From NCBI GenBank assembly GCA_964517685.1, contig CAZFCF010000001.1, positions 345,458 through 409,457 on the forward strand: DNA of 64,000 nt, written 5' to 3'. Below the pieces are notes generated by a model, which saw nothing but the letters and a program-made list of their open reading frames with translations, had not been told where the DNA came from and made no database searches. The translations under genes and the position numbers were made by a program. Of this stretch, positions 1,990 to 58,515 are shown piece by piece. The DNA comes from an uncultured Gammaproteobacteria bacterium. Its GTDB lineage: Bacteria; Cyanobacteriota; Vampirovibrionia; LMEP-6097. Positions within the stretch are counted from its first letter, which is position 1, and each line of letters begins with the position of its first letter.

Positions 1990-3501
1990 ATGTTAGATCA
2001 ATTAGAAAGCAATTTTAACCACAATATAGACCAAAATAGTAGCGAGCAAAGCGAATATTCATCAATAAGCATCAAAAGCTCAGAAGATTCTGAAAATATA
2101 GTTATAGAAAATGGCTATATCGAGCTTTGGCAACAGGTTCTTGAATATCTAGAGAAAAAACTCAGAAAACCCAGCTTTGATACGTGGATCAGACCAACAC
2201 AGCTAATCAAGATCGAAAGCGACACAGCAACGATTGCAGTGAAAAATGAGTTCACTAGAAACTTTCTGCTCCAAAGCTATTACAAAGAAATACAAGAGGC
2301 ATTAAAAGAAATTCTGGCTAAATCTATAGCTATAAAATTTATAGTTCTTATAGATTTAGAAATCCCTGAAAACCAGTCAATATCTAATGTTGAAAATGAG
2401 AAAAATTTTAACGATAAGCAAATTAGTCTTGCGGAAATAAAAACACCTAATAGTTCTTACAAGAAACATTCGACTAAACTCAACAGTAAATTCAATTTTC
2501 TAAATTTCATACTTGGTAAATCTAATCAAGCACCTTATACTTTTGCAAAAGCAATCACTGAAAGCAGTTCAGGAGTTTATAGTTCTCTATTTATACATTC
2601 AGATACAGGTCTGGGTAAAACTCATTTATTGCATGCCATTGGCAATCAAGCTCAGGAACTGCAATACGGGCTCAAAGTTAAATACGTTAAAGCTGAAGAC
2701 TTCACAAACGAACTTATAGTTTCCATTCAACGCAACAACACTGCACAGTTTAGATCTAATTACAGAAACTTAGATTTATTACTTTTCGATGATTTTCATT
2801 TTCTTGATAACAAAAAAACCTGCCAAGAAGAGTTTGCATTCACCCTAGAATCCATTATTGAAAATGGTGGCAAAGTAGTAATGTCTTCAGCAAAAATGAT
2901 TGAAGAGTTTAAAACTCTTTCAAATAAACTCAAAAGTAAAATTCGTGGTTCTTTAATCTCAACTATAGAGAAACCCAATTACACAACACGTTTAAAAATC
3001 CTTTCAGAGAAAGCTAATATCTCGCAAATTCAAATCAACGAAGAACATTTAGGATTTATAGCGGGTAAATTCGAGAACAATGTGCGTGAGCTTGAAGGTG
3101 CATTAATGCAAATATCCGCCTTTAAGAATTTTGCAGGTGAAAGTATTGATGATGATCTTATAGCTAATCTCTTTGGGGGTATTGCGCCAGAACCGGAATA
3201 CAAAGGTTTATCAATAGAAAAAATCACCAAGAAAGTCGCAGAATTTTATGACTGTGATTTATCGGAGCTTATCGGCAAGTCAAGAGTTAAAGAAATAGCT
3301 AACGCACGACATCTTGCTATCTATTTAGCTCATACAATTTTGAGACTGAGTTATACAAGAATCGGTGATTATTTTGCTGGAAGAAAGCATAGTTCAATAA
3401 TTCATTCTGCTTCGATGGTGAGAAAAGATATTAATTCAGATAACTCTAATAGTAATTATAAATACGCAATAGAACAAATTAAAAAATCTCTATCCGTCTA
3501 A
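1990..3501 (+). CDS. dnaA: Chromosomal replication initiator DnaA.
   Basis: Walker A GLGKTHLLHAIGNQ, an AAA+ core and the C-terminal DnaA DNA-binding signature ANARHLAIYLAH...RIGDYFAGRKHSSIIHS. The N-terminal ~60 aa is an extension; the true start may be internal. Confidence 0.9.
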   Translation: MLDQLESNFNHNIDQNSSEQSEYSSISIKSSEDSENIVIENGYIELWQQVLEYLEKKLRKPSFDTWIRPTQLIKIESDTATIAVKNEFTRNFLLQSYYKEIQEALKEILAKSIAIKFIVLIDLEIPENQSISNVENEKNFNDKQISLAEIKTPNSSYKKHSTKLNSKFNFLNFILGKSNQAPYTFAKAITESSSGVYSSLFIHSDTGLGKTHLLHAIGNQAQELQYGLKVKYVKAEDFTNELIVSIQRNNTAQFRSNYRNLDLLLFDDFHFLDNKKTCQEEFAFTLESIIENGGKVVMSSAKMIEEFKTLSNKLKSKIRGSLISTIEKPNYTTRLKILSEKANISQIQINEEHLGFIAGKFENNVRELEGALMQISAFKNFAGESIDDDLIANLFGGIAPEPEYKGLSIEKITKKVAEFYDCDLSELIGKSRVKEIANARHLAIYLAHTILRLSYTRIGDYFAGRKHSSIIHSASMVRKDINSDNSNSNYKYAIEQIKKSLSV

Positions 3502-3533: not shown

Positions 3534-4637
3534 ATGACTCAAACTTTAGAGCAGTACACTAAAGAAAATCCTTTTCTAACTTTGCTTTTAGAAAATTATA
3601 TTTTAAACAAACCTGGTTCAAGTAAAGATACCAGGCACTTTGTAATTAGTTTAAAAGACAGCGGTATTAATTATGAACCTGGTGATTCATTGTATGTTTG
3701 TCCAGAAAACGAAATCAATTTAGTCAATGAACTACTTAGCTATTTAAAACTTGATCTAAACAAAGAAGCAGAACTGCATCGCTTTACTCAAGAAATTAAT
3801 ATTACTAGAGCCAGTAATAAACTTTTCAAATTAATAGAAGGCAAGCTAGGTGAGGCTTTTAATACTACTGAAGCAACAGAGAAATTTAATGGCTATAGCA
3901 TTCCTGGCATTATCAAAACTCTTAAAGCACAGTATTCTAATTTAGAACTTAGTAGTAATGAAATTGCTGAAAACTCTTCTAAATTACAAGCAAGAGCATA
4001 TTCAATAGCCTCTTCTTTAAAAGCTCATCCAGAAGAAGTTCATCTTTGTATCTCCAGAGTAGATACAGAAGTCAATGGACAACAGGTTCTTGGAGTATGT
4101 TCTAACTATCTTTCATCTAGAGTGCCACTAAATCAAAAAAATCTAAGAATCTACTTACACAGCAATGATAAATTCAGGTTACCTAGCGAAAAAACTACCG
4201 ACATCATCATGGTTGGTCCTGGTACTGGCATTGCACCTTTTAGAGCCTTTATCGAAGAAAGAAATTTCCTAAGAGATCAAGGTGAAACAGTTGGCAAAGA
4301 CTGGCTTTTCTTTGGTGACCAAAAAGCTGCATATGACTACCTTTATGAAGACGAATTTGAAGCATATGCAAAAAAATATAACTTAAAAGTTACTACAGCC
4401 TTTTCACGTGATCAAGCTGAAAAAGTATATGTGCAAAATAAAATGAAAGAAAACTCGAAAGAGATTTTTGCAATGCTGGAAAATGGTGCTTACTTCTATG
4501 TGTGTGGTGATGCAAGACGTATGGCGAAAGATGTTGATCAAGCCTTACAAGAAATTATTACTGAGAACGGCAAGAACGCAGAAGAGTATATCAAAAACTT
4601 AAAAGATACTAAGAGATATTGCAGAGATGTCTATTAA
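3534..4637 (+). CDS. FAD/NAD(P)-binding oxidoreductase of the ferredoxin-NADP+ reductase / sulfite-reductase-flavoprotein (CysJ-like) family.
   Basis: FNR signature RAYSIASS, the NAD(P)-binding motif GPGTGIAPFRAF, and a C-terminal YVCGDARRMAKDV motif typical of the FNR superfamily. Confidence 0.6.
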   Translation: MTQTLEQYTKENPFLTLLLENYILNKPGSSKDTRHFVISLKDSGINYEPGDSLYVCPENEINLVNELLSYLKLDLNKEAELHRFTQEINITRASNKLFKLIEGKLGEAFNTTEATEKFNGYSIPGIIKTLKAQYSNLELSSNEIAENSSKLQARAYSIASSLKAHPEEVHLCISRVDTEVNGQQVLGVCSNYLSSRVPLNQKNLRIYLHSNDKFRLPSEKTTDIIMVGPGTGIAPFRAFIEERNFLRDQGETVGKDWLFFGDQKAAYDYLYEDEFEAYAKKYNLKVTTAFSRDQAEKVYVQNKMKENSKEIFAMLENGAYFYVCGDARRMAKDVDQALQEIITENGKNAEEYIKNLKDTKRYCRDVY

Positions 4638-6722
4638 ATGTCCGTCTTATTTGCATCACTTGGCATAATTTTTGGATCCCTTTATTTTGTAATTGGTGAT
4701 AATCGAGTTATGCTTGCAGCTTTAGTTGCATTCGTAATATCAAGTGCAGTCTTTACCACTCTTAGACATCGTCGCAAAGAAATCATTAGTTTTCTAGTTT
4801 TTTTCTTATTGATGTTTTTTAATTACAACCTGAGATCAGACTTTTTAGAGGTTTTTGACTTAGAGCAATATATCACCACAAACAAGTCACAGCTTTACTT
4901 TCAAATAGTAAGCCCACCTCGTAATAGAGTTTTCTATTCTGAATTTATAGTTCAAGTAAAAAATAAAAACAGAAAGTTCAGTAATATAGTCAAAGATATT
5001 TTCCTGCCTTATAGATTCTTAGCTAAAGCCCCTGCTACTTTAGGATTGGCAGAAGCTGATATAGTTGCCATTCAAGACCTTTCGCTCCATAGATTAGATC
5101 GATATAGATACAGAATCTACAAGAAAAACAAAGTCTTTAATGAATCAGAAACTAAGAGTATAAGTTTTGTTGCTTCTGAAGACAATATATTTACTAAGGT
5201 ACAAAACTCTATTAAAGAATATTTCTTTAGAAATCTAAGTTTCGAAAATGCTCAAATCGCCAGCAGCTTACTTCTTGGAGCTAAAACAGCAAGCCCTCCA
5301 GAAGAGTTTTCTAGGATTTCCTACAAACTCGGTATAGGTCATTTCTTGGCAGCATCAGGTTTTCAGCTCGTAGTTTTAGGGTTTTTAATAAACTCTATTT
5401 TCAAAACTCTCAAATTCAATCTCTATGTCACTAATTTAACAACCTTAGTATTAGTTCTGTTTTATGCGGGTCTAGCAGGGTTTAGTCCTTCTATAACTCG
5501 TGCAGCTATTTGCGTTGCTGTATTTTTACTCTTGCAACTTAGTAAGCGTAAAATGGATAGTAAAAGATTTTTACTAATACTGGCTGGAATAGTTTTATTT
5601 ATTGATCCCTACACTGTTTTAGACTTAGGCTTTCAATTCAGCTATCTAGCTACATTAGCTCTATTAATTTGGACTTCAACTATAGAGAAGAAACTTGAAT
5701 TTATTAAACCTAAATTCATTCGCGAAGGGGTGGCTATAACGCTTTCAGTACAGTTATTCTTGCTACCTTTATCAATTTATTACTTTGGAAATTTACAAAT
5801 CTGGAGTATCCTTGCCAATATAATTCTTACACCAATCTTGACTCTAATTACTTTACTTTCATTCTTTGGTCTATGTTTCCTTATTGAACCGCTTTTAAAT
5901 TTAACTAAATACTTGGTCTATCATGCCAACCAATTACCAGGTCTAGATTCTGCCTATGATATGGATTTCTCAAGTATGGTACTTATGACTTTATTTCTTA
6001 ATATGCTTGCCTTTGCAATCATAAGACCTAATATTAATACTCCAAATGATGCTGAGTTCATGAAAACTATTTATACACGCTATTACGATGAGAATATTTT
6101 TTTATTCTTGAAAAAAATATTTACTGACCCTTGTATGCAAATCAGTGTGCTAGTTTCTACTTTGGCTTTGCTTTTAGCAACTAGCCTGCCTCCATACAAC
6201 ACTGTTGTATTGCCTATTGAAAATGGCTTGATTAAAAATTTCCCTGCACTTAAGCAAGTAATGAAGGATAAATCAATTAATTCTCAATATCTTGATTATC
6301 AAGATTTGAAAATATTACTAATTAAGAATCGTAGTTCACTTAAGAAGTTAGGAACTCTGACTGGCAATCTACAAGAAGTAGATATTTTAATTTTGCCGCA
6401 GTTAAATGAAAAAGATATTTATTTAAATACTCTAATAGAAATTACTAAACCACAGTTTGTTGTTGCTTCAGTCAGGAGGAGTCATAGTAAAAAACAAATG
6501 CCGTCATCGCGAAGCCGCGAAGCGGCTGTGGCTGTCATTGCGAGCGAAGCGAAGCAATCCCCCGGCGCTCAAAATGGGATTGCCACGTCGCCTTCGCCTC
6601 CTCGCAATGACGACACAAATAAGGTGGATTCTAATTTGAAAATTATTACTGGAAAGGCTCACACCGTTATAGATTCAGGTGTATTATACATAAGTAAAGG
6701 AAAATTTTGGAGTCTCAATTAA
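4638..6722 (+). CDS. ComEC/Rec2-like polytopic membrane protein (competence/DNA-internalisation family). It carries an in-frame GC-rich palindromic insertion.
   Basis: Many TM helices; motif GIGHFLAASGFQLVVLGFL resembles the ComEC GxxHLLAISGLH motif. Residues ~615-665 (SVRRSHSKKQMPSSRSREAAVAVIASEAKQSPGAQNGIATSPSPPRNDD) are encoded by the 6498-6613 palindromic element. Confidence 0.55.
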   Translation: MSVLFASLGIIFGSLYFVIGDNRVMLAALVAFVISSAVFTTLRHRRKEIISFLVFFLLMFFNYNLRSDFLEVFDLEQYITTNKSQLYFQIVSPPRNRVFYSEFIVQVKNKNRKFSNIVKDIFLPYRFLAKAPATLGLAEADIVAIQDLSLHRLDRYRYRIYKKNKVFNESETKSISFVASEDNIFTKVQNSIKEYFFRNLSFENAQIASSLLLGAKTASPPEEFSRISYKLGIGHFLAASGFQLVVLGFLINSIFKTLKFNLYVTNLTTLVLVLFYAGLAGFSPSITRAAICVAVFLLLQLSKRKMDSKRFLLILAGIVLFIDPYTVLDLGFQFSYLATLALLIWTSTIEKKLEFIKPKFIREGVAITLSVQLFLLPLSIYYFGNLQIWSILANIILTPILTLITLLSFFGLCFLIEPLLNLTKYLVYHANQLPGLDSAYDMDFSSMVLMTLFLNMLAFAIIRPNINTPNDAEFMKTIYTRYYDENIFLFLKKIFTDPCMQISVLVSTLALLLATSLPPYNTVVLPIENGLIKNFPALKQVMKDKSINSQYLDYQDLKILLIKNRSSLKKLGTLTGNLQEVDILILPQLNEKDIYLNTLIEITKPQFVVASVRRSHSKKQMPSSRSREAAVAVIASEAKQSPGAQNGIATSPSPPRNDDTNKVDSNLKIITGKAHTVIDSGVLYISKGKFWSLN
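6498..6613. repeat. GC-rich palindromic element (RPE-like), complete copy inside comEC, in frame.
   Basis: caaatgccgtcatcgcgaagcc...tgtcattgcgagcgaagcgaagcaatcc...ggattgccacgtcgccttcgcctcctcgcaatgacg. GC is far above the local background. Left and right halves are mutually complementary. Confidence 0.8.
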
Positions 6723-12255: not shown

Positions 12256-12304
12256 GCCTTGTACATTTTATCTTATTAAACAAGACTTCTTAAGGAGAGT
12301 ATTT

Positions 12305-12520
12305 CATTAAGCCTTATTAAGCGTAATAATTGATATGAATACGAGATGAGGCAAATGAAGCTTGGTTAGCAAATCAGCTGGGCGCGAAGTTTAAGGAATA
12401 TAAAGTTTTTTAATAATTTTTTTTATTCGCGAAGCGTGTTTCAAGCCCAGCTCGATTTGCTCCAAGCGTAATGAAGTTGAATCCGTATGAAATATCACAT
12501 TACGCTATAAGGCTTAATAA
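12305..12520. repeat. Nested palindromic element: outer inverted repeats plus an inner GC-rich palindrome, between the leuS start and the ABC-permease gene end.
   Basis: Outer arms cattaagccttattaagcgtaataa (12305-12329) and cattacgctataaggcttaataa (12497-12520, inverted). Inner arms gcttggttagcaaatcagctgggcgcgaag (12357-12389) and cgcgaagcgtgtttcaagcccagctcgatttgctccaagc (12428-12467). Confidence 0.6.
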
Positions 12521-13985
12521 ATACTCTATTAACTCCATCTATTAAAAAATTAAAAAACAAAGCAAGCAACGCAGCCGAAATCGCACCCATAAGTATTAAA
12601 GAATTATCACCGAGATCAATCCCAGTTTTAATCAAATCACCAAGACCACCGGCTCCGACAAAGGTAGCAAGTGTAGCCATGCCAACGCAAATCACCGTAG
12701 TAGTTTTAAGCCCTGCAAAAATATATGGCATTGCAAGTGGTAGCTTGATTCTCCACAGAATCAAAGACTCTTTGAGCGCGAGTGAATTAGCTAAATCTAT
12801 ATATTCAGGAGCAATAGTTTTAATTCCCGTATAAGTATTTTGGACTATTGGTAATAAGCCATAAAGTATCAAAGCCATAATTGCAGCTGGCATTCCCAAG
12901 CCTAATATTGGAATTAGTAGAGCAAGCAAAGCCAAGCTAGGAATGGTTTGTATGATTGAAGCTAAAGCTAAAACCAATTTAGCTAAATTCTCTTTATAGC
13001 TAATCAAGATCCCCAGACTAAGACCCAAAACTAAAGCTATTAAGACCGCAATAAAAGTTATTTGTAAATGTCTAACAAAGGCTTTAGCCAAACTTTGTAA
13101 ATCTTCTTCAAACCTAGATTTAGGCTGTAAAGCCTTTCTTTGAGTCAATTCAGCCACAAAAGAATTAGCAACCGATTCATAACTTTCACCATTAATAATT
13201 CGCTGATTTAATTCAATAATTTTTTGATTGCTTAAAGAACCTTCTAAGATTTTTATTACTGATTTTATTTGCGGGAAATTAACAAGTAAATCTTTTCTGT
13301 ATACCAGAATAGATTCATAACTCTTAAGAGCATTTAAATCATCTTTAAGTATCTGGAACTCTGAACTATTAATTCGGGAATCAGTAGAATAAGCATCTAT
13401 AAGATCCACTTTATTGGTTCTCAAAGCATCAAGAGCAATATTATATTCAAGAGCTTTTAAATTTTTGTGTAAATCTAATTTATAAATATCTTCCAAAAGA
13501 CTTAGCCCATCAGGTCTTGCAATGAAATTATGACTTAAGCCATAACGCAAATCTTCTTTCGTTAAATCTGAAATATTTTGTAAATGAATCTCATCAGCTA
13601 AACCTTTTCGAACTAGCAAAACAAAATTATTATCGAAACCAAGACTTTTACTGAAACTAATTTGTTTTTCAGCTAATGCGGTATTTAGATCCTTAGTAGA
13701 TTTCTTTAAACTCAAATCTCTACCAAAAATATAATTAGCTAAAGAAGAAATATAATCCGGATAAATATCAATCTTATTAGCTTGCAAAGCATTAAAACAA
13801 ATATTTACTCCTCCTAAGTAATAAAACTTTTTGACTTTATAATTAGTTTCTTGCTCAATGGTTTGTGAAAGGATTTCAGCTACTAATATCGACTCTGGGA
13901 AGTTACGAGAACCAATATTTATAATAGTTTCAGCCTTAGCACTCAATAAAAAACAAGAAATAAAAATTAGCCAAAAATACTTCAT
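12495..13985 (-). CDS. Osmoprotectant-type ABC transporter: substrate-binding domain fused to a permease domain.
   Basis: Signal peptide, an OpuAC/ProX-like N-terminal domain, and a C-terminal multi-TM domain with an ABC permease EAA-like loop. Confidence 0.6.
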   Translation of the reverse strand: MKYFWLIFISCFLLSAKAETIINIGSRNFPESILVAEILSQTIEQETNYKVKKFYYLGGVNICFNALQANKIDIYPDYISSLANYIFGRDLSLKKSTKDLNTALAEKQISFSKSLGFDNNFVLLVRKGLADEIHLQNISDLTKEDLRYGLSHNFIARPDGLSLLEDIYKLDLHKNLKALEYNIALDALRTNKVDLIDAYSTDSRINSSEFQILKDDLNALKSYESILVYRKDLLVNFPQIKSVIKILEGSLSNQKIIELNQRIINGESYESVANSFVAELTQRKALQPKSRFEEDLQSLAKAFVRHLQITFIAVLIALVLGLSLGILISYKENLAKLVLALASIIQTIPSLALLALLIPILGLGMPAAIMALILYGLLPIVQNTYTGIKTIAPEYIDLANSLALKESLILWRIKLPLAMPYIFAGLKTTTVICVGMATLATFVGAGGLGDLIKTGIDLGDNSLILMGAISAALLALFFNFLIDGVNRVFIKPYSVM

Positions 13986-13986
13986 A

Positions 13987-15483
13987 TTAGATTTTGTTCT
14001 CTTTATATTTCTCTAAAATATACTCTGCAAAGTAACTAATATCATCTTCAAGTTGAGAACGTTCTAAAGCAGCAAAGTATTTTTTACGATCTTCACTTGG
14101 AATAGTAAGCCATCTATATTTGCCTTGAACAAAAGCTAAGTTCATCAAAAATCTTGAAATCCTGCCATTGCCATCACTATGAGGATGAATCCAGACATAA
14201 AAATAATGTAAGAAAATTCCTCTTTCAAAACCATTCTCTATCTCTTTCAAATAATCAAATAAAGTATCTAATAAAGCATAAAGTTTTTCGTGTGCTGGAG
14301 GTACAAAATTAGCTCCCTTAATACTAACCATATGATTACGATAAACATTCAACTCACCATTGATCAACTTTGCATTAATACTAGGTTTCCACAGTTCTTG
14401 GAATAGTTTTTTAGACAAAGCTTCATTGATAACAAAATTACTTGAAATAATTTTTTTTATATATCCCAAAGCATTCATAAAACCTTTAGCAGCTAATTGA
14501 TTTTTCAAATCTACATCATCAACTTGTTCACTGTCGTTTTCTTGTAAATAATCAATAAGAGCCTTAGTTACTGTATAACCTTCAATAGTCAAACTATGGT
14601 AAGTATCATCAACAATAATTGCATCAATATCTTTATCCGTTAAGTTATTGGTTAATTTCTTTGGTTTTTTTAAATGCTCTAATATTTTTATAGCTTTTAA
14701 TATTGAAATTTCAAATCTAGAAACATATATAGGTTTTTCTGTATTAGTAGATAGAACAAAGTCATCAAAAGGATTTACCACTTTAATTTTGGCATCCATA
14801 ATTTTAAAGAACTCCTCTAACTCTAGACGAAGGACTGTATCTCCAATTTGATCTAAAGCTCCAATTAATCTTGCAAGTAAAACTGGTGAACTGTTAGCTT
14901 TAAAAAATTCAAGTATATATTGATCATCTCGATCTGATGATTTAAGCAATGACATGATTTCATATTTAAAATTTTTGTATTCACTTAAAGTGGAATTAAT
15001 TATCAAAAATTCATGTTTTAAATGACTATAAGAACCAGCAAAACAATTTGAAACTAAGATTGGTTTAGTATCAAAATTTTCATCATAAGCAGCAAGTATT
15101 TTCACACCTGAAATCAAGTCAATGATTCTATTTGACTTAGATTTAGTTGCTAAAGAAATTTGTGATGAGTGAATACTGAAATCTTCTACAAGAAATTTAT
15201 ATGCATAATTCCCAGTTAAATACCAACCATCTTTAAAACTTAAATTTAGAAATTGAAAAACTATAATCCAAAAATTATTTTTAAAAGCTATTTCTGCAGA
15301 ATCAAATTGATCTTTGATAAAACAATATTGTTTATTTAAATCTTCAAGAAAAGATTTATGCTTCAGAAATTTATAAATTTTAGTTTCAATAGAACTTTTT
15401 TCAAATACAAGTTGTTTTTGCTTAAGCTGGCGTTTTAGCCAATTCTTTGATTGAAGTTCAATATCATTCAAGGTTTCTGCCAT
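13987..15483 (-). CDS. Fic/Doc (Fido) family protein, 498 aa.
   Basis: Canonical Fic motif HPHSDGNGRISRFLMN (HxFx[DE]GNGRxxR). An upstream SLTIEG matches the inhibitory [ST]xxxE[GN] motif of class-II Fic proteins. Confidence 0.75.
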   Translation of the reverse strand: MAETLNDIELQSKNWLKRQLKQKQLVFEKSSIETKIYKFLKHKSFLEDLNKQYCFIKDQFDSAEIAFKNNFWIIVFQFLNLSFKDGWYLTGNYAYKFLVEDFSIHSSQISLATKSKSNRIIDLISGVKILAAYDENFDTKPILVSNCFAGSYSHLKHEFLIINSTLSEYKNFKYEIMSLLKSSDRDDQYILEFFKANSSPVLLARLIGALDQIGDTVLRLELEEFFKIMDAKIKVVNPFDDFVLSTNTEKPIYVSRFEISILKAIKILEHLKKPKKLTNNLTDKDIDAIIVDDTYHSLTIEGYTVTKALIDYLQENDSEQVDDVDLKNQLAAKGFMNALGYIKKIISSNFVINEALSKKLFQELWKPSINAKLINGELNVYRNHMVSIKGANFVPPAHEKLYALLDTLFDYLKEIENGFERGIFLHYFYVWIHPHSDGNGRISRFLMNLAFVQGKYRWLTIPSEDRKKYFAALERSQLEDDISYFAEYILEKYKENKI

Positions 15484-15501
15484 AACTATTAGTAATTATA
15501 C

Positions 15502-15616
15502 CCGATATTTTCCAGCAATTAATACCGATACTTTCCAGTGAATGAAGCCTAGCTTTACTAGAAAAAGTCGCCTAGTTTCACTAGAAAATCTTGCCTAGTT
15601 TTACTGGAAATTTCTA
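15502..15616. repeat. Tandem direct-repeat array, 5 units of 23 bp.
   Basis: Units start at 15502, 15525, 15548, 15571 and 15594: ccgatattttccag..., ccgatactttccag..., cctagctttactagaaaaagtcg, cctagtttcactagaaaatcttg, cctagttttactggaaatttcta. Confidence 0.7.
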
Positions 15617-15617
15617 A

Positions 15618-16295
15618 TTACTGGCTTAAAATAAGGCTTTTTAGCTCTAAGCTCCTATCAGCCAAACCCTCAATTTCTTCCGAGTTATGGCTTACAAGAA
15701 TCATTGAAGTACCCTGTTTTTTAAGCAATTGAAACTTATTAATCAAAATAGATTTAGTTTCTTTATCAATACCATTAAAGGGTTCATCAAGTAAAAGTAA
15801 TTTAGGTTTATTCATTAATGCCAAAGCTAAAGCGACTCTTTGCGCTTGCCCACCCGAAAGCTCTGCTGGATAACGACCTTCATATTCCCTAAAATTAATC
15901 TCCACAAAATCCAGTAATTCAGAAATTTCTTGTAAGAAAAAATCTTTCTTAGCTTGAAAGCCAAAAATCATTTCAGTGTTTCTCATTTCATTTTGCTTAG
16001 ATAAAGCCAAATTATCAAACACAGTTAAATGCGGAAATAGGATTCCTTTTTGGAAAATATATGAAATTTGTTTTCTAAGATCTTTTAAATCCCAATCATT
16101 GATTGATTTATCAAAGAAAGAAATAGAGCCCTTATCATAAGCCAAAAGCCGATTAATAAGTTTCAGAACTGTAGTTTTACCAGAACCACTGGGACCAATG
16201 ATAGCTAAGCATTCGGAATCAGTGACGTTAAAACTAAGATCACAAACAATCGGTTTATCACTAAAACTTTTAGAAATATCTCGTACTTCAAGCAT
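15618..16295 (-). CDS. ABC transporter ATP-binding protein.
   Basis: Walker A GPSGSGKTT, ABC signature LSGGQAQRV, Walker B LLLLDEP. Confidence 0.8.
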   Translation of the reverse strand: MLEVRDISKSFSDKPIVCDLSFNVTDSECLAIIGPSGSGKTTVLKLINRLLAYDKGSISFFDKSINDWDLKDLRKQISYIFQKGILFPHLTVFDNLALSKQNEMRNTEMIFGFQAKKDFFLQEISELLDFVEINFREYEGRYPAELSGGQAQRVALALALMNKPKLLLLDEPFNGIDKETKSILINKFQLLKKQGTSMILVSHNSEEIEGLADRSLELKSLILSQ

Positions 16296-16870
16296 TAGAA
16301 TACTTGAGTTACAGTTTCTACTAAATCAGGAACCTCTGCAAGCAAGGCACGCTCAACACCCATTTTCATAGTCATCAGAGCACTTGGACAAGTACCACAA
16401 GCCCCAACCATTCTTAGCCTTGCATCCTTAGCAACAACATCAACCAATTCAATATTGCCGCCGTCAGCAACTAAAGCAGGTCTAATTTTATTTAAAACAG
16501 CTTCAATACGTCCTCTAGCATCAGAGTCATCACCACTTGGAGCAGTTTCAGCAGGTTTATTTTGTTCTGCCCATTTATGCATTCCATCAAGATTAGATTT
16601 GATAGCTTCTTTAATCTCTAGATGAATATCTTTCCAATTGATATGTTCTTCTTTATCAACAGTAACGAAATTATTCATAACGAAAACTTTCTTGATACCA
16701 GGTATTTTAAAAAGAGATTCAGCGAGCGTATTGCCAACATTTTGAGCTTCATTAATGTTTAAATAACTCAGCGAATTTGAGTAAGGATAAATTACTTCAC
16801 TGCAAATAAACTTCAGGCTATTTGGGTTAGGGGTGTATTCCGCTCGTACAGTAAGGTTTAAGGTATCCAT
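16295..16870 (-). CDS. nfuA: NfuA-type Fe-S cluster assembly protein (Nfu_N + NifU-like domains).
   Basis: C-terminal GACGTCPSALMTMKMGVE is the NifU CxxC motif. An Nfu N-terminal domain is present. Confidence 0.65.
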   Translation of the reverse strand: MDTLNLTVRAEYTPNPNSLKFICSEVIYPYSNSLSYLNINEAQNVGNTLAESLFKIPGIKKVFVMNNFVTVDKEEHINWKDIHLEIKEAIKSNLDGMHKWAEQNKPAETAPSGDDSDARGRIEAVLNKIRPALVADGGNIELVDVVAKDARLRMVGACGTCPSALMTMKMGVERALLAEVPDLVETVTQVF

Positions 16871-16888: not shown

Positions 16889-18208
16889 TTAGTACTCAGG
16901 GAACCTGTCGTCTCCAGTATCATCGTCGTCGTCAGGGTTTTCGTTATATTCTTCAACATCTTCATCGTCTTCGAAGTCTTCGTCTTCTTCCTCTTCGACT
17001 TCTTCTTCATCTAGATCTTCAACATCATCTTCAAGGTCATCATCTTCTTCCTCAAGATCATCAGAATCATCATCTAGATCTTCATCAGGATCATCTAAAT
17101 CATCATCACCCAGCATAAGTTCTGCTTCTTGATCACTAAAATCGTTAGCACCTAATTCTTTACTATCTTGGCTTTCTAGTTCTAAAATAGACATGGTTTC
17201 ATCCTCTAAATCGATATTGTCAATAATATTATTATCCACATTTTCGCCATGTTGCAACAGGTAATCTTCTAAACTTAAATTTTCGAAATCAAGGTCATCT
17301 AATGGGTCAATTTTGACTTCTATTAAGCCTTCTAGAAGCTCGTTTTTAGGCTCAATCATTGGGTCTTTTAAGGGTTTTATCTCATAACCTAAATAACGTC
17401 CTAAGACCTCTTTTAATACTTTTATTTGACCACTGAAAGATGCGTCAAGACGACCACCTTGAGTATTTACAATACAAGAGCCTTGATCGATACTTTCATC
17501 TTTTTGAAAAACTAATTTTATGGAAGGATCGAGCACTTTTAACAAGGCTTTTTCCAGGAAAGCAACTTTATCAATATCCTTTGGATGTAAATAAATTTGC
17601 ATAATACCTTTGGCGGTAACAACTTTAGAAATAGCTCTTTCTACTTGAGTTTGCAAGACTTCATCATTAGTTTCAACTTCATATCCAAGGATTTGATTAA
17701 CTAAATCAAAAGCAATGGACATAATTTCTTTTTTGGATTCTTCAATTACATTTTTCTTAGCATGATGAAAAGTTGCGAGATAATTCATTAGCTCAGCAAT
17801 GATCTCTGAAGCTTTAGACATTCCCTCTTCAAAGGATTGTTTAAGTTCTTGTTCTTTTAAAATTACAATTTGATTTCTTTCATTTTCAAGTAATTTTTTA
17901 GTATCATAAATTTCAATCTCAGCAGTTTTTTTATAGGCATTAGCCTCCTCAACAATAGTTGCAGCCTCAGTTTGAGCCTCTTGGATCATTTGCTGTATTT
18001 CTTCTTCAGCATGAGATTTTTTAACAGCAATCTCCCTATTGAATTCCTCTAATAATGCTTCAGATTTTTTTTGTACTAAAGATTGAGCTTGATTCTCAAT
18101 TTCTTGAGTAATAGGATTATTGAAATTAAAACCAGAGTTAGAAATAGCAGTAGCTTTAGTAACAGGTACTACAATCTCCTTTACTGTTTTTTTCTTCTTT
18201 ATTAACAT
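16889..18208 (-). CDS. fliH: Flagellar assembly protein FliH (SctL family) with a ~170-aa poly-acidic C-terminal tail.
   Basis: N-terminal Glu/Ala/Gln-rich coiled coil. C-domain GSCIVNTQGGRLDASFSGQIKVLKEVL matches the FliH/YscL C-terminal block. Residues ~270-439 are >60% Asp/Glu. Confidence 0.6.
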   Translation of the reverse strand: MLIKKKKTVKEIVVPVTKATAISNSGFNFNNPITQEIENQAQSLVQKKSEALLEEFNREIAVKKSHAEEEIQQMIQEAQTEAATIVEEANAYKKTAEIEIYDTKKLLENERNQIVILKEQELKQSFEEGMSKASEIIAELMNYLATFHHAKKNVIEESKKEIMSIAFDLVNQILGYEVETNDEVLQTQVERAISKVVTAKGIMQIYLHPKDIDKVAFLEKALLKVLDPSIKLVFQKDESIDQGSCIVNTQGGRLDASFSGQIKVLKEVLGRYLGYEIKPLKDPMIEPKNELLEGLIEVKIDPLDDLDFENLSLEDYLLQHGENVDNNIIDNIDLEDETMSILELESQDSKELGANDFSDQEAELMLGDDDLDDPDEDLDDDSDDLEEEDDDLEDDVEDLDEEEVEEEEDEDFEDDEDVEEYNENPDDDDDTGDDRFPEY

Positions 18209-18580
18209 CTATACGTTCTCTAAAACTACTTCATCGATAATTTTTGCAATAGTGTGACTAATATTAGGTCGCATTTTTCTTTTACCTAATCTGTACTCAA
18301 TATATTCACGAACTAAAGGTCTTTCAGTAACAATGAACTCTTGGCTGCGTTGCACTTTAGTTTCATTTTTAACATTTGCAATTAATTTAAAAAAGTCTGG
18401 CCAAGATTTTGCGAAATAATCCCAATCCTCCTGTGACAAAGTCTCATCAATACTGAGATCCACTTCACTAATTTTTTGTACTAAAGGCAAGGGCAATTGT
18501 TCAAAAATAGATTTTTGCGTTTGTGGTGGTAGAGATCTTAAGATCAATGCCAGAGATTTTAATTTTCGATTCATGTCCAT
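18209..18580 (-). CDS. Short FliG-like protein, 123 aa, resembling only the FliG N-terminal (FliF-binding) domain.
   Basis: Sits in the fliG position between fliF and fliH. KLKSLALILRSLPPQTQKSIFEQLPLPLVQKISE resembles the FliG N-terminal block (KAAILLLSLGEE..AAEVLKHL...EV..L). No middle or C-terminal FliG domains follow. Confidence 0.4.
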   Translation of the reverse strand: MDMNRKLKSLALILRSLPPQTQKSIFEQLPLPLVQKISEVDLSIDETLSQEDWDYFAKSWPDFFKLIANVKNETKVQRSQEFIVTERPLVREYIEYRLGKRKMRPNISHTIAKIIDEVVLENV

Positions 18581-57363: not shown

Positions 57364-57527
57364 TACTTTAAGTTAAATTAGCATATTAAGGCAAATCTAT
57401 ATAATTGCTGAGCCGAATAGTAAAATTAATCGGCTCAAATAAAAGATAATTCTGAGCCGATTGTTCTTAATATCATATTAATTTTGGTGTTATATATGAT
57501 ACTAAATCTGGTATTATAATATTATGA

Positions 57528-57785
57528 TTGGACAAAAAATATACTAAAATTCTCAGGAAAATCAAAGAGAATCCAAAAGCTGTAACAGTCACTGAACTCA
57601 TAAAGCTAATGGAATTGATCGGTTTTTCTTATAGAAGAGGTTCTAAGAATCATTATATTTTTTACTATCAATCATTAACTATTGGAGTTGCGCCTCCTCA
57701 TCCTGGCAAACATATAAAACCAATTTATGTAAGAGAATGTCTAAAGGCAATTAATGAGGTAATAGAAAATGACCAAAAAAACTAA
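57528..57785 (+). CDS. hicA: HicA-family mRNA interferase toxin.
   Basis: 85 aa; HicA (YcfA-like) C-terminal block HPGKHIKPIYVRECLK. Confidence 0.6.
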   Translation: MDKKYTKILRKIKENPKAVTVTELIKLMELIGFSYRRGSKNHYIFYYQSLTIGVAPPHPGKHIKPIYVRECLKAINEVIENDQKN

Positions 57786-58152
57786 AGAACAAAATTTCAA
57801 ACAAGAAATAAAAAACTATCTAGAGCTTCCATATAGCTTCACGGTTGCCAAAGATACTGATGAAGACGAAGAGGAATACTTTTATGCTTTAGTCAATGAA
57901 TTACCTGGTTGCGTTTCAGACGGCAAAACCCCAGAAGAAGCTTTGAAGAACATTAAAGATGCAATGTACGATTGGATTGAAACAGCTTTAATTAATGGGG
58001 AGAGAATTCCTGAACCTAATAAATGCAGCGGTAAATTTTCAGTAAGAATTCCACCTTCTTTGCATCAAGATCTTATTAATAAAAGTAATCGTGAAGGCGT
58101 AAGTATTAACCAACTAGTTACTTCTGCTATTTCAAGAGCTGTGGGTTTTTAG
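57769..58152 (+). CDS. hicB: HicB-family antitoxin.
   Basis: Overlaps hicA by 17 nt. HicB fold motif LPGCVSDGKTPEEALKNIKDA and a C-terminal RHH-like GVSINQLVTSAISRAVG. Confidence 0.6.
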   Translation: MTKKTKEQNFKQEIKNYLELPYSFTVAKDTDEDEEEYFYALVNELPGCVSDGKTPEEALKNIKDAMYDWIETALINGERIPEPNKCSGKFSVRIPPSLHQDLINKSNREGVSINQLVTSAISRAVGF

Positions 58153-58164
58153 TAGGTAAATTGA

Positions 58165-58515
58165 CTATCGGCTAGAAAACAAAACTTTTCCTGTTCGTTT
58201 AATTTCTCTAATAAAATCAGGATCAATATAGGAATCTTCGTTGTAATAACTTTTTGAAGGAAATGCCAATAACTGCAAATATGGCTCACAAAGTCCAGCT
58301 TTTCTAGAAACGGTTAAAACATTCTTGAACATAGCCTGTCCAACTTCTAAATCTGGTGAGACGACAGCAATATCTACATCACTCAAATCTGTTGCTGTGC
58401 CTTTTGCATAGGAACCAAAAAGTATAATCTCATCAATTTGAAAACTCTTTGTAACCGAATTAACGACTTTATCTGTAAGTTCTTTTAATTCTACGGTAGT
58501 TTTTTTTCCAGCCAT
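58165..58515 (-). CDS. Minimal nucleotidyltransferase (MNT; Pol-beta superfamily).
   Basis: LFGSYAKGTATDLSDVDIAVV is the GS...D.D motif. No HEPN partner gene is adjacent. Confidence 0.6.
   Translation of the reverse strand: MAGKKTTVELKELTDKVVNSVTKSFQIDEIILFGSYAKGTATDLSDVDIAVVSPDLEVGQAMFKNVLTVSRKAGLCEPYLQLLAFPSKSYYNEDSYIDPDFIREIKRTGKVLFSSR

Follow-up and report, generated by a model that had tools for sequence, protein, structure and literature searches.

The fic locus

The subject of this study is a fic gene in a 64,000-nt stretch of DNA (the window; contig CAZFCF010000001.1 of assembly GCA_964517685.1, forward-strand positions 345,458 to 409,457). It encodes a protein of 498 amino acids (positions 13987-15483 of the window, minus strand) and is preceded by a 134-bp spacer that holds five tandem 23-bp repeats. 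The gene separates the two halves of an ATP-binding cassette (ABC) transporter operon, and the repeats are most likely the operator of the Fic protein's own N-terminal module, which is predicted to fold like the antitoxin AbiEi. The whole region consists of minus-strand genes only, in the order FliF, a 123-aa open reading frame (ORF), FliH, NifU/Nfu, ABC ATPase, spacer, fic, an OpuAC-permease fusion, and LeuRS.

The upstream half of the split operon is the gene of the ATP-binding subunit (15618-16295, minus strand; 225 aa; Pfam ABC_tran, 7e-36), whose start overlaps the NifU/Nfu gene (16295-16870, minus strand) by 1 nt. The downstream half is the OpuAC and permease fusion gene (12495-13985, minus strand; Pfam OpuAC, 2e-36, and BPD_transp_1, 1.7e-23). 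Its ATG lies 1 nt past the fic stop codon, and at locus L086 the corresponding stop and start codons overlap (we use L001 to L089 for the loci of relatives, L001 being CAYQSL010000094.1). The Pfam content of the flanking genes (ABC ATPase, OpuAC and BPD_transp_1) is the composition of an osmoprotectant-type ABC importer; NCBIfam gives partial matches of the ProW, OsmF and ProV types, every one of them under its equivalog cut-off. Because the permease start follows the fic stop so closely, the permease gene is probably co-transcribed with fic and under the same control. No terminator-like site was found between the ATPase gene and fic, and together with the 1-nt junction this suggests that the permease is probably expressed by read-through across the array, from the fic promoter, or by both routes.

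The 23-bp repeat array

The spacer (15484-15617, minus strand) is recognized by Tandem Repeats Finder as two adjoining sub-arrays of period 23, with 2.8 and 2.0 copies. In a single register it contains five head-to-tail 23-bp units, in the order TTCCAGTAAAACTAGGCAAGATT, TTCTAGTGAAACTAGGCGACTTT, TTCTAGTAAAGCTAGGCTTCATT, CACTGGAAAGTATCGGTATTAAT and TGCTGGAAAATATCGGGTATAAT, and after unit 5 there is a partial sixth unit, TACTAATAGTT, that reaches into the ATG. The units are of two sequence types. Distal units 1-3 (15609-15587, 15586-15564 and 15563-15541, together 15541-15609, minus strand) share the 17-nt core TTTCYAGTRAARCTAGG, with three exact pattern matches, while proximal units 4-5 (15540-15518 and 15517-15495, together 15495-15540, minus strand) have the core CTGGAAARTATCGG. 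The lag-23 self-match of the spacer is 0.67 (z = 13.8 against shuffles). The TTTCYAGTRAARCTAGG core has three copies in the spacer and none elsewhere in the 64 kb, where 0.12 are expected by chance, and a count of three was reached in none of 100 shuffles. The original prediction, which was made from the letters of the sequence, had placed a 498-aa fic gene between ABC ATPase and permease-fusion genes, behind a 134-bp spacer of five tandem 23-bp units; the gene calls agree with this, and the units are borne out, with the refinement that they are of two types.

A putative -10 hexamer, TATAAT (15495-15500, minus strand), closes unit 5 and lies 11 nt upstream of the ATG. If transcription is directed by this hexamer, the fic transcript would be nearly leaderless.

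The same kind of array precedes the homologues of this Fic protein. The homologue set consists of 58 full-length proteins from metagenomes with 41-58% identity, of which the two that are named come from Caenarcaniphilales or "Cyanobacteria" metagenome-assembled genomes (MAGs). Their genes are found in at least six different neighbourhoods (flagellar/NifU/LeuRS, CstA, DnaB/RF-1, AsnC regulator, and others), and repeats are present in every upstream region inspected. Among the upstream regions of 14 close homologues, lag 23 gives the best autocorrelation in 13, the other being L016 with a lag of 22; the periodicity at L024 is not significant (p 0.28), because a long leader displaces the array. 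For homologues at 25% identity, two have a lag of 24 and a third is without periodicity. A hexamer TATAAT, TATAAC or TACAAT occurs upstream of the ATG in 15 of 15 loci, and in most of them it closes the last full in-register unit and is followed by another unit core before the ATG (L013 and L024 are ambiguous). The sequence of the units themselves is allele-specific around a loose skeleton, as in TCTAGCAAAATAGGG, TCTAGTAAAACTAGG, TCTATAAAATATCGG, CTGGAAAATATCGG and TACTATAAAnnATATAG. The proximal unit type of the window recurs in L086 and L019.

At L024 (~2940-3038), the array and TATAAT are located ~75 nt further upstream, and the leader holds a GC-rich hairpin, GCAGAAACGTGACCGACGTCACGTTTCTGC, which is not present in the other loci.

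Two explanations of the array that involve no protein binder can be weighed on these data. In the first, the repeats would be RNA hairpins in read-through transcripts from the ATPase gene, with a role in processing, attenuation or stability between the two transporter genes. The missing terminator between the ATPase gene and fic would suit this, and the spacer does fold better than shuffles in the window (z -3.0), L001 (z -3.4) and L010 (z -2.6). However, for seven of ten homologous spacers the folding does not exceed that of shuffles (z -0.4 to +0.95), while these spacers retain the 23-bp DNA periodicity, the low z values are due to the quasi-palindromic unit cores, and no Rfam family matched in the window or the spacer. 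Since the folding is not conserved, the conserved property is the DNA periodicity; we reject the RNA-structure reading and regard it as very unlikely.

In the second, the array would be a slippage minisatellite, neutral or of the contingency type, with no binding function. Unit number does vary between related species: the array has five units in the window, four in L086 (2 + 2) and four, of one type, in L001. Against this, four further samples of the window organism have exactly the same spacer, on which ground the minisatellite reading was rejected. Moreover, the period and its phase relative to the -10 hexamer and ATG are held across alleles that differ in unit sequence and whose proteins share 41-58% identity, as neutral slippage would not do. 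A minisatellite is thus highly improbable. Of the two functions originally suggested for the array, a variable minisatellite and a regulatory binding array, the first is not supported and the second is, because the 23-bp register persists in front of genes of this Fic family that lie in unrelated neighbourhoods.

The N-terminal module

Our candidate for the reader of the array is the Fic protein's N-terminal part. Its first 60 residues (15304-15483, minus strand) are predicted to form a winged helix-turn-helix in AlphaFold2 models, with a predicted local distance difference test (pLDDT) score of ~95 there; the predicted elements are a helix at residues 5-21, a strand at 26-28, a short helix at 29-31, a helix at 34-42, and a hairpin at 46-56. 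Residues 61-230 (14794-15303, minus strand) follow, by predicted secondary structure, with a helix, a row of beta-strands and a six-helix bundle, and resemble the C-terminal ("antitoxicity") domain of AbiEi. A separate AlphaFold2 model of residues 1-285 (pLDDT 89.4) was compared to solved structures with Foldseek. The best PDB match is AbiEi of Streptococcus agalactiae (6y8q; E 2.7e-4, probability 1.0, 227 columns), with the winged-helix residues 1-60 being part of the match. The only other solved member of the AbiEi family, Rv2827c of Mycobacterium tuberculosis (1zel), is seventh (probability 0.97, 249 columns), and the remaining matches are nucleotidyltransferase-like folds. The predicted order of elements (three helices and a beta hairpin, a long helix, a row of strands, and a six-helix bundle) agrees with the published description of AbiEi (PMC7319586). 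Residues 1-230 are thus predicted to fold like an AbiEi antitoxin/repressor.

AbiEi serves the type IV AbiE system as both antitoxin and repressor. Two 23-bp inverted repeats span the -35, -10 and +1 of its own promoter, and each is bound by a single monomer (PMC3985639). For Rv2827c there are four such 23-bp binding repeats, which lie within -1 to -131 of its start codon and overlap the promoter (PMC7319586). Both proteins bind their repeats as monomers and repress their own operons (PMC3985639, PMC7319586). Given the modeled fold, the likely binder of the array in the window is the Fic protein itself, through its AbiEi-like N-terminal module.

At the sequence level the module stands apart. 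Pfam searches of the window protein at E up to 10 gave no match for it, the AbiEi Pfam families at E up to 1 matched none of 18 members (distant ones included), and a profile of the module matched none of the PDB sequences. A phmmer search against 1.84 billion representatives returned only three clusters, all of them Fic fusions of ~500 aa, and tblastn against 72,556 plasmid and 50,697 phage records found no homologue. When the query was the N-terminal part of L029, a homologue at 25% identity, at least 1,187 clusters from Proteobacteria and other MAGs were returned; where named, these are "cell filamentation protein Fic" or "Fic family protein", and their N-terminal part is without Pfam annotation. 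The module is the most variable part of the protein, with a mean pairwise identity of 0.42-0.44 versus 0.72 for the catalytic half.

The Fic domain

The Fic (Fido) domain occupies residues 283-498 (13990-14637, minus strand) and was identified in several ways. Pfam Fic (PF02661) matches residues 369-449 with 52.5 bits (cut-off 24), a profile built from 40 homologues has human FICD as a match (9e-21, residues 285-493), and FICD is the top Foldseek match of the full-length model (AlphaFold2, pLDDT 90.5; 3e-11); PADLOC also matches the region, with its SoFic profile (see below). No solved structure shared the full architecture in the Foldseek search with the full model. The catalytic loop HPHSDGNGRISR (residues 433-444; 14152-14187, minus strand) and the inhibitory-helix motif SLTIEG (residues 297-302; 14578-14595, minus strand), both read from the sequence, are invariant or nearly so across the 40 homologues. 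In the alignment with FICD, S297-LTI-E301-G302 corresponds to T-VAI-E234-G (TVAIEG). This (S/T)xxxE(G/N) helix is ~135 residues N-terminal of the catalytic loop in the same chain; Y295, H296, I300 and E301 are invariant in 42 sequences, as are the catalytic His, Asp, Gly, Asn, Gly, Arg and Arg residues in the homologues. Because the inhibitory Glu aligns with that of FICD, and because E301 and the catalytic residues are invariant, the domain is, on the alignment, a class II Fic domain with predicted N-terminal inhibition by Glu301. The two motifs that the original prediction quoted are therefore present at these residues, and its proposal of a class II, auto-inhibited Fic holds up on the FICD alignment and the invariant E301.

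The AMPylation-competent Fic motif was reportedly given as HxFx(D/E)GNGRxxR by Engel et al. in 2012. The loop HPHSDGNGRISR agrees with this at every specified position except the Phe, which is His435 here, and the loop, this His included, is invariant across the family of ~500-aa proteins. The protein ends with the Fic domain (last helix, residues 483-495), and no C-terminal helix-turn-helix of the SoFic/CccR type follows it.

Exchange of a cassette between close relatives

Nucleotide identity profiles delimit an exchangeable cassette of ~1.3 kb (14230-15545, minus strand), which contains the proximal units, the promoter, and fic codons 1 to ~418. Between the window and L001, nucleotide identity is only 45-65% from ~15545 to 14230, versus 70-95% on both sides. 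The flanking proteins are 82-95% identical, and the last 250 nt of fic show 83-95% nucleotide identity. On the upstream side, the nucleotide homology with L001 runs through the distal units, which are of the same type as the L001 units and homologous to L001 units 1-3, and ends at 15548. The comparison with L086 shows the reverse: the cassette stretch is 90-96% identical, and the flanking ABC genes are 83-86% identical. The boundaries agree in the two independent comparisons, one being in the repeat array and the other in the conserved catalytic region. These profiles indicate that the proximal units, promoter, AbiEi-like module and half of the Fic domain have passed between close relatives as one block. 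The AbiEi-like module moves with the proximal units, as expected if the two work together.

The L001 record is labelled Gammaproteobacteria, and the other relatives are labelled Caenarcaniphilales or Cyanobacteriota. Since the L001 genes are 82-95% identical to those of the window, its label is probably a binning or taxonomy error. A Vampirovibrionia/Caenarcaniphilales placement of the window is suggested by the names of two homologues and by the flagellar, low-GC content.

Insertion into the transporter operon

The order ATPase-fic-permease was seen only in the window species, L086 and L001. Two other arrangements were found in relatives. In L010-L012, the order is FliF, small ORF, FliH, inverted NifU, fic and LeuRS, and the ABC genes are absent. 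In L087-L089, which have permease-fusion homologues at 48-50% identity, the permease gene is directly beside the ATPase gene and fic is absent; the distance between the two genes is 13 nt in L087 and 73 nt in L089, and in L088 they share 4 nt. L088 and L089 have the order FliF, small ORF, FliH, NifU, ATPase, permease, and in L087 NifU is close by but separated from the ATPase gene by two unannotated genes. L088 and L089 appear to be more distant from the window than L010-L012, since their FliF, NifU and small-ORF identities to the window are lower (56/65/41-46% versus 61/74/73%). The comparison thus supports the view, proposed originally, that the gene is an insertion into a transporter operon: relatives with contiguous ATPase and permease genes do exist. 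In particular, it supports entry of the fic module, with its own promoter, into an intact NifU-ATPase-permease operon in an ancestor, and the simplest history, judging from identity levels, is that the ABC genes were then lost in the L010-L012 branch. The opposite polarity, with the transporter as newcomer, was suggested by L010-L012, which have fic without the ABC genes; it was rejected because the more distant L087-L089 keep the intact ATPase-permease arrangement.

In L010, L011 and L012 (~4220-4860), NifU has the opposite orientation to that in the window and overlaps the end of FliH with its 3' end, which suggests that NifU was turned around by the same rearrangement through which the ATPase gene was lost.

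The mobility of fic raises the question of whether the units are replicon iterons, or the end sites of a transposon-like element that brought fic to its present position. A spacing of ~22-23 bp resembles that of plasmid iterons and Tn7-type end sites, and fic has clearly been moved or exchanged. However, there is no adjacent Rep, transposase or integrase gene, and the units are on the 5' side only; at the 3' end, only 1 nt separates fic from the next gene, too little for a second transposon end. The N-terminal module has no homologue in the plasmid or phage records searched, and the flagellar/NifU/LeuRS synteny is chromosomal rather than a replicon context. We consider an iteron or transposon origin of the units to be extremely unlikely.

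The same loci bear on another alternative, namely that the array serves as operator for some other regulator of the host, such as an osmoregulatory factor for the permease gene, and that Fic is not the binder. This would fit with the translational juxtaposition of permease and fic, by which the permease may depend on the fic promoter, and with the lack of sequence-level DNA-binding annotation for the N-terminal module. However, the array accompanies fic in loci without the ABC genes (L010, L012-L025) and is missing from the ATPase-permease junctions of L087-L089. The unit sequence also shifts with each allele, in the manner of a co-evolving cis/trans pair and not of a shared global factor, and the motif is found nowhere else in the 64 kb. 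We therefore regard a host regulator as unlikely.

Neighbouring features

The 239-nt spacer between the permease gene and leuS (12256-12494, minus strand) forms a long imperfect hairpin, GCUUGGAGCAAAUCGAGCUGGGC ... GCCCAGCUGAUUUGCUAACCAAGC, with a minimum free energy of -57.1 kcal/mol (z -4.6; 0 of 200 shuffles fold as well). It has no match in Rfam, and could be a leuS leader or the terminator of the transporter operon.

The FliH gene (16889-18208) has an Asp/Glu-rich low-complexity C-terminal region with several tandem-repeat calls at 16950-17108. The 123-aa ORF (18209-18580), which is between FliF and FliH in the position expected for FliG, is 41-74% identical in all syntenic relatives and has no Pfam match.

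Elsewhere in the window (57470-58515) there is a toxin-antitoxin pair of a HicA-like gene (57528-57785; Pfam, 2e-7) and HicB (57769-58152; 9e-11). A two-copy 24-bp tandem repeat at 57470-57518 lies upstream of the pair and is probably its operator. A small nucleotidyltransferase gene of the NTP_transf_2/Polbeta type (58165-58515, minus strand) converges on the pair.

Proposed mechanism and significance

From the domain content, the in-phase 23-bp arrays, the cassette exchange and the polarity of insertion, we infer a system that binds its own DNA, represses itself and has enzymatic activity. Specifically, we propose that the Fic protein is a single-chain, self-repressing, Glu-inhibited class II Fic enzyme with a toxin-antitoxin-like or defence-like role, a reading to which we assign a probability of roughly 0.6. 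In this model, one AbiEi-like module would bind each 23-bp unit as a monomer, by analogy with the AbiEi-family antitoxins. The head-to-tail units occupy the stretch from ~-125 to the start codon and cover the -35 region, -10 hexamer and start site, so that their occupancy would shut off the protein's own promoter in negative autoregulation, and the permease gene would come under the same control as fic. The ATP site would be blocked by Glu301 of the protein's own N-terminal inhibitory helix. On relief of this inhibition, the Fic domain may AMPylate a target, or, with Glu301 in place, it may de-AMPylate one. The outcome would be a toxin-antitoxin-like or phage-defence-like module within one protein.

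Several observations weigh against this model. The distal units are of another allele's type, and so the resident protein may not bind them. The proximal units and the N-terminal module may have been exchanged jointly for no other reason than that they are neighbours. Known AbiEi sites are inverted, with gaps of 3-13 bp between the repeats, whereas the units in the window are direct and contiguous. A simple sigma-70 scan did not call TATAAT as a -10, the hexamer being missed because the -35 is weak. Finally, the His in place of the canonical Phe in the catalytic loop makes the chemistry uncertain.

A bolder version would have the protein be a one-polypeptide type IV toxin-antitoxin or abortive-infection system, in which operator occupancy is mechanically coupled to the Fic site and the cassette is swapped under pressure from phages or competitors. 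The activity of the Fic domain would then depend on the state of the DNA, in addition to the Glu301 lock, the operator-plus-reader cassette would be a specificity unit between strains, and the architecture, with its at least 1,187 clusters, would represent a large new class of DNA-tethered Fic switches. We offer this version tentatively and consider it doubtful.

The self-repressing Fic model proposes a concrete role for an unannotated domain of ~280 residues that precedes Fic in ~58 Vampirovibrionia-type proteins, and also in more than 1,000 proteobacterial and other protein clusters. It links two modules that have been studied separately, namely AbiEi-type repressor/antitoxins and class II Fic enzymes, and would explain a conspicuous 23-bp repeat array as an operator. 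The locus also illustrates how a module with a promoter of its own can divide an operon in nature: outgroups keep the pre-insertion state, and close relatives exchange a delimited 1.3-kb cassette of proposed operator plus reader. If the binding is true, the alleles with differing units are a ready set for the study of how AbiEi-like modules read 23-bp sites.

Comparison with known systems

The flanking genes have the same composition as osmoprotectant ABC transporters with a fused binding protein and permease (OpuC/OsmF-YehZ-like), which form a two-gene operon in relatives; unlike these, the operon of the window is broken by a 1.6-kb fic module with its own promoter.

For the Fic domain, human FICD/HYPE and C. 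elegans Fic-1 are the nearest solved structures by sequence and fold. FICD has its inhibitory Glu at the position of E301, but has tetratricopeptide repeats and a membrane anchor where the window protein has the AbiEi-like module, and has Phe in the catalytic loop where the window family has His. The de-AMPylation activity of FICD depends on the inhibitory Glu, and the Foldseek list for the window protein includes 7b7z, the deAMPylation complex of FICD with AMPylated BiP. SoFic, a single-gene Fic-based anti-phage defence (PMC12249575), is matched through PADLOC at 4.4e-22 over residues 263-494 (profile positions 27-261 of 361). Both are single Fic proteins, and SoFic is proposed to act by toxic AMPylation (PMC12249575). 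The C-terminal winged-helix part of SoFic is not present in the window protein, whose N-terminal 260 residues are unrelated to SoFic.

The AbiEi/AbiEii system of S. agalactiae and Rv2827c/Rv2826c of M. tuberculosis have the two-domain fold predicted for the window module, and in both, as in the window, 23-bp units are located within ~130 bp before the start codon and overlap the promoter, which in the window is a putative one. They are also similar in being linked to a nucleotide-transferring, toxin-type enzyme. They differ in that the module has no detectable sequence similarity to the AbiEi families, and in that the partner of AbiEi is a DUF1814 nucleotidyltransferase encoded by a second gene, whereas the window module is fused to Fic and the next gene is an ABC permease.

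A Fic protein with a DNA-binding domain has precedents. In CccR of Yersinia pseudotuberculosis, another class II Fic protein, repression of its own promoter is exerted through a DNA-binding domain fused to the Fic domain (PMC9755527); like the window protein, CccR has an N-terminal inhibitory SxxxEG helix, and its operator repeats are near the -35 and -10 (PMC9755527). CccR differs in having a C-terminal helix-turn-helix of the SoFic type and binding as a dimer to one pair of inverted repeats, where the window has an N-terminal AbiEi-like candidate and five or six direct 23-bp units. The activity of a Coxiella Fic protein is reported to be induced by DNA binding (PMC10628234). Full-text literature searches pairing AbiEi with Fic found no description of such a fusion. 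The architecture is nevertheless common, and is not categorically new: it would be an autoregulated class II Fic enzyme with an AbiEi-type reader and operator, joining kinds of system that are already known.

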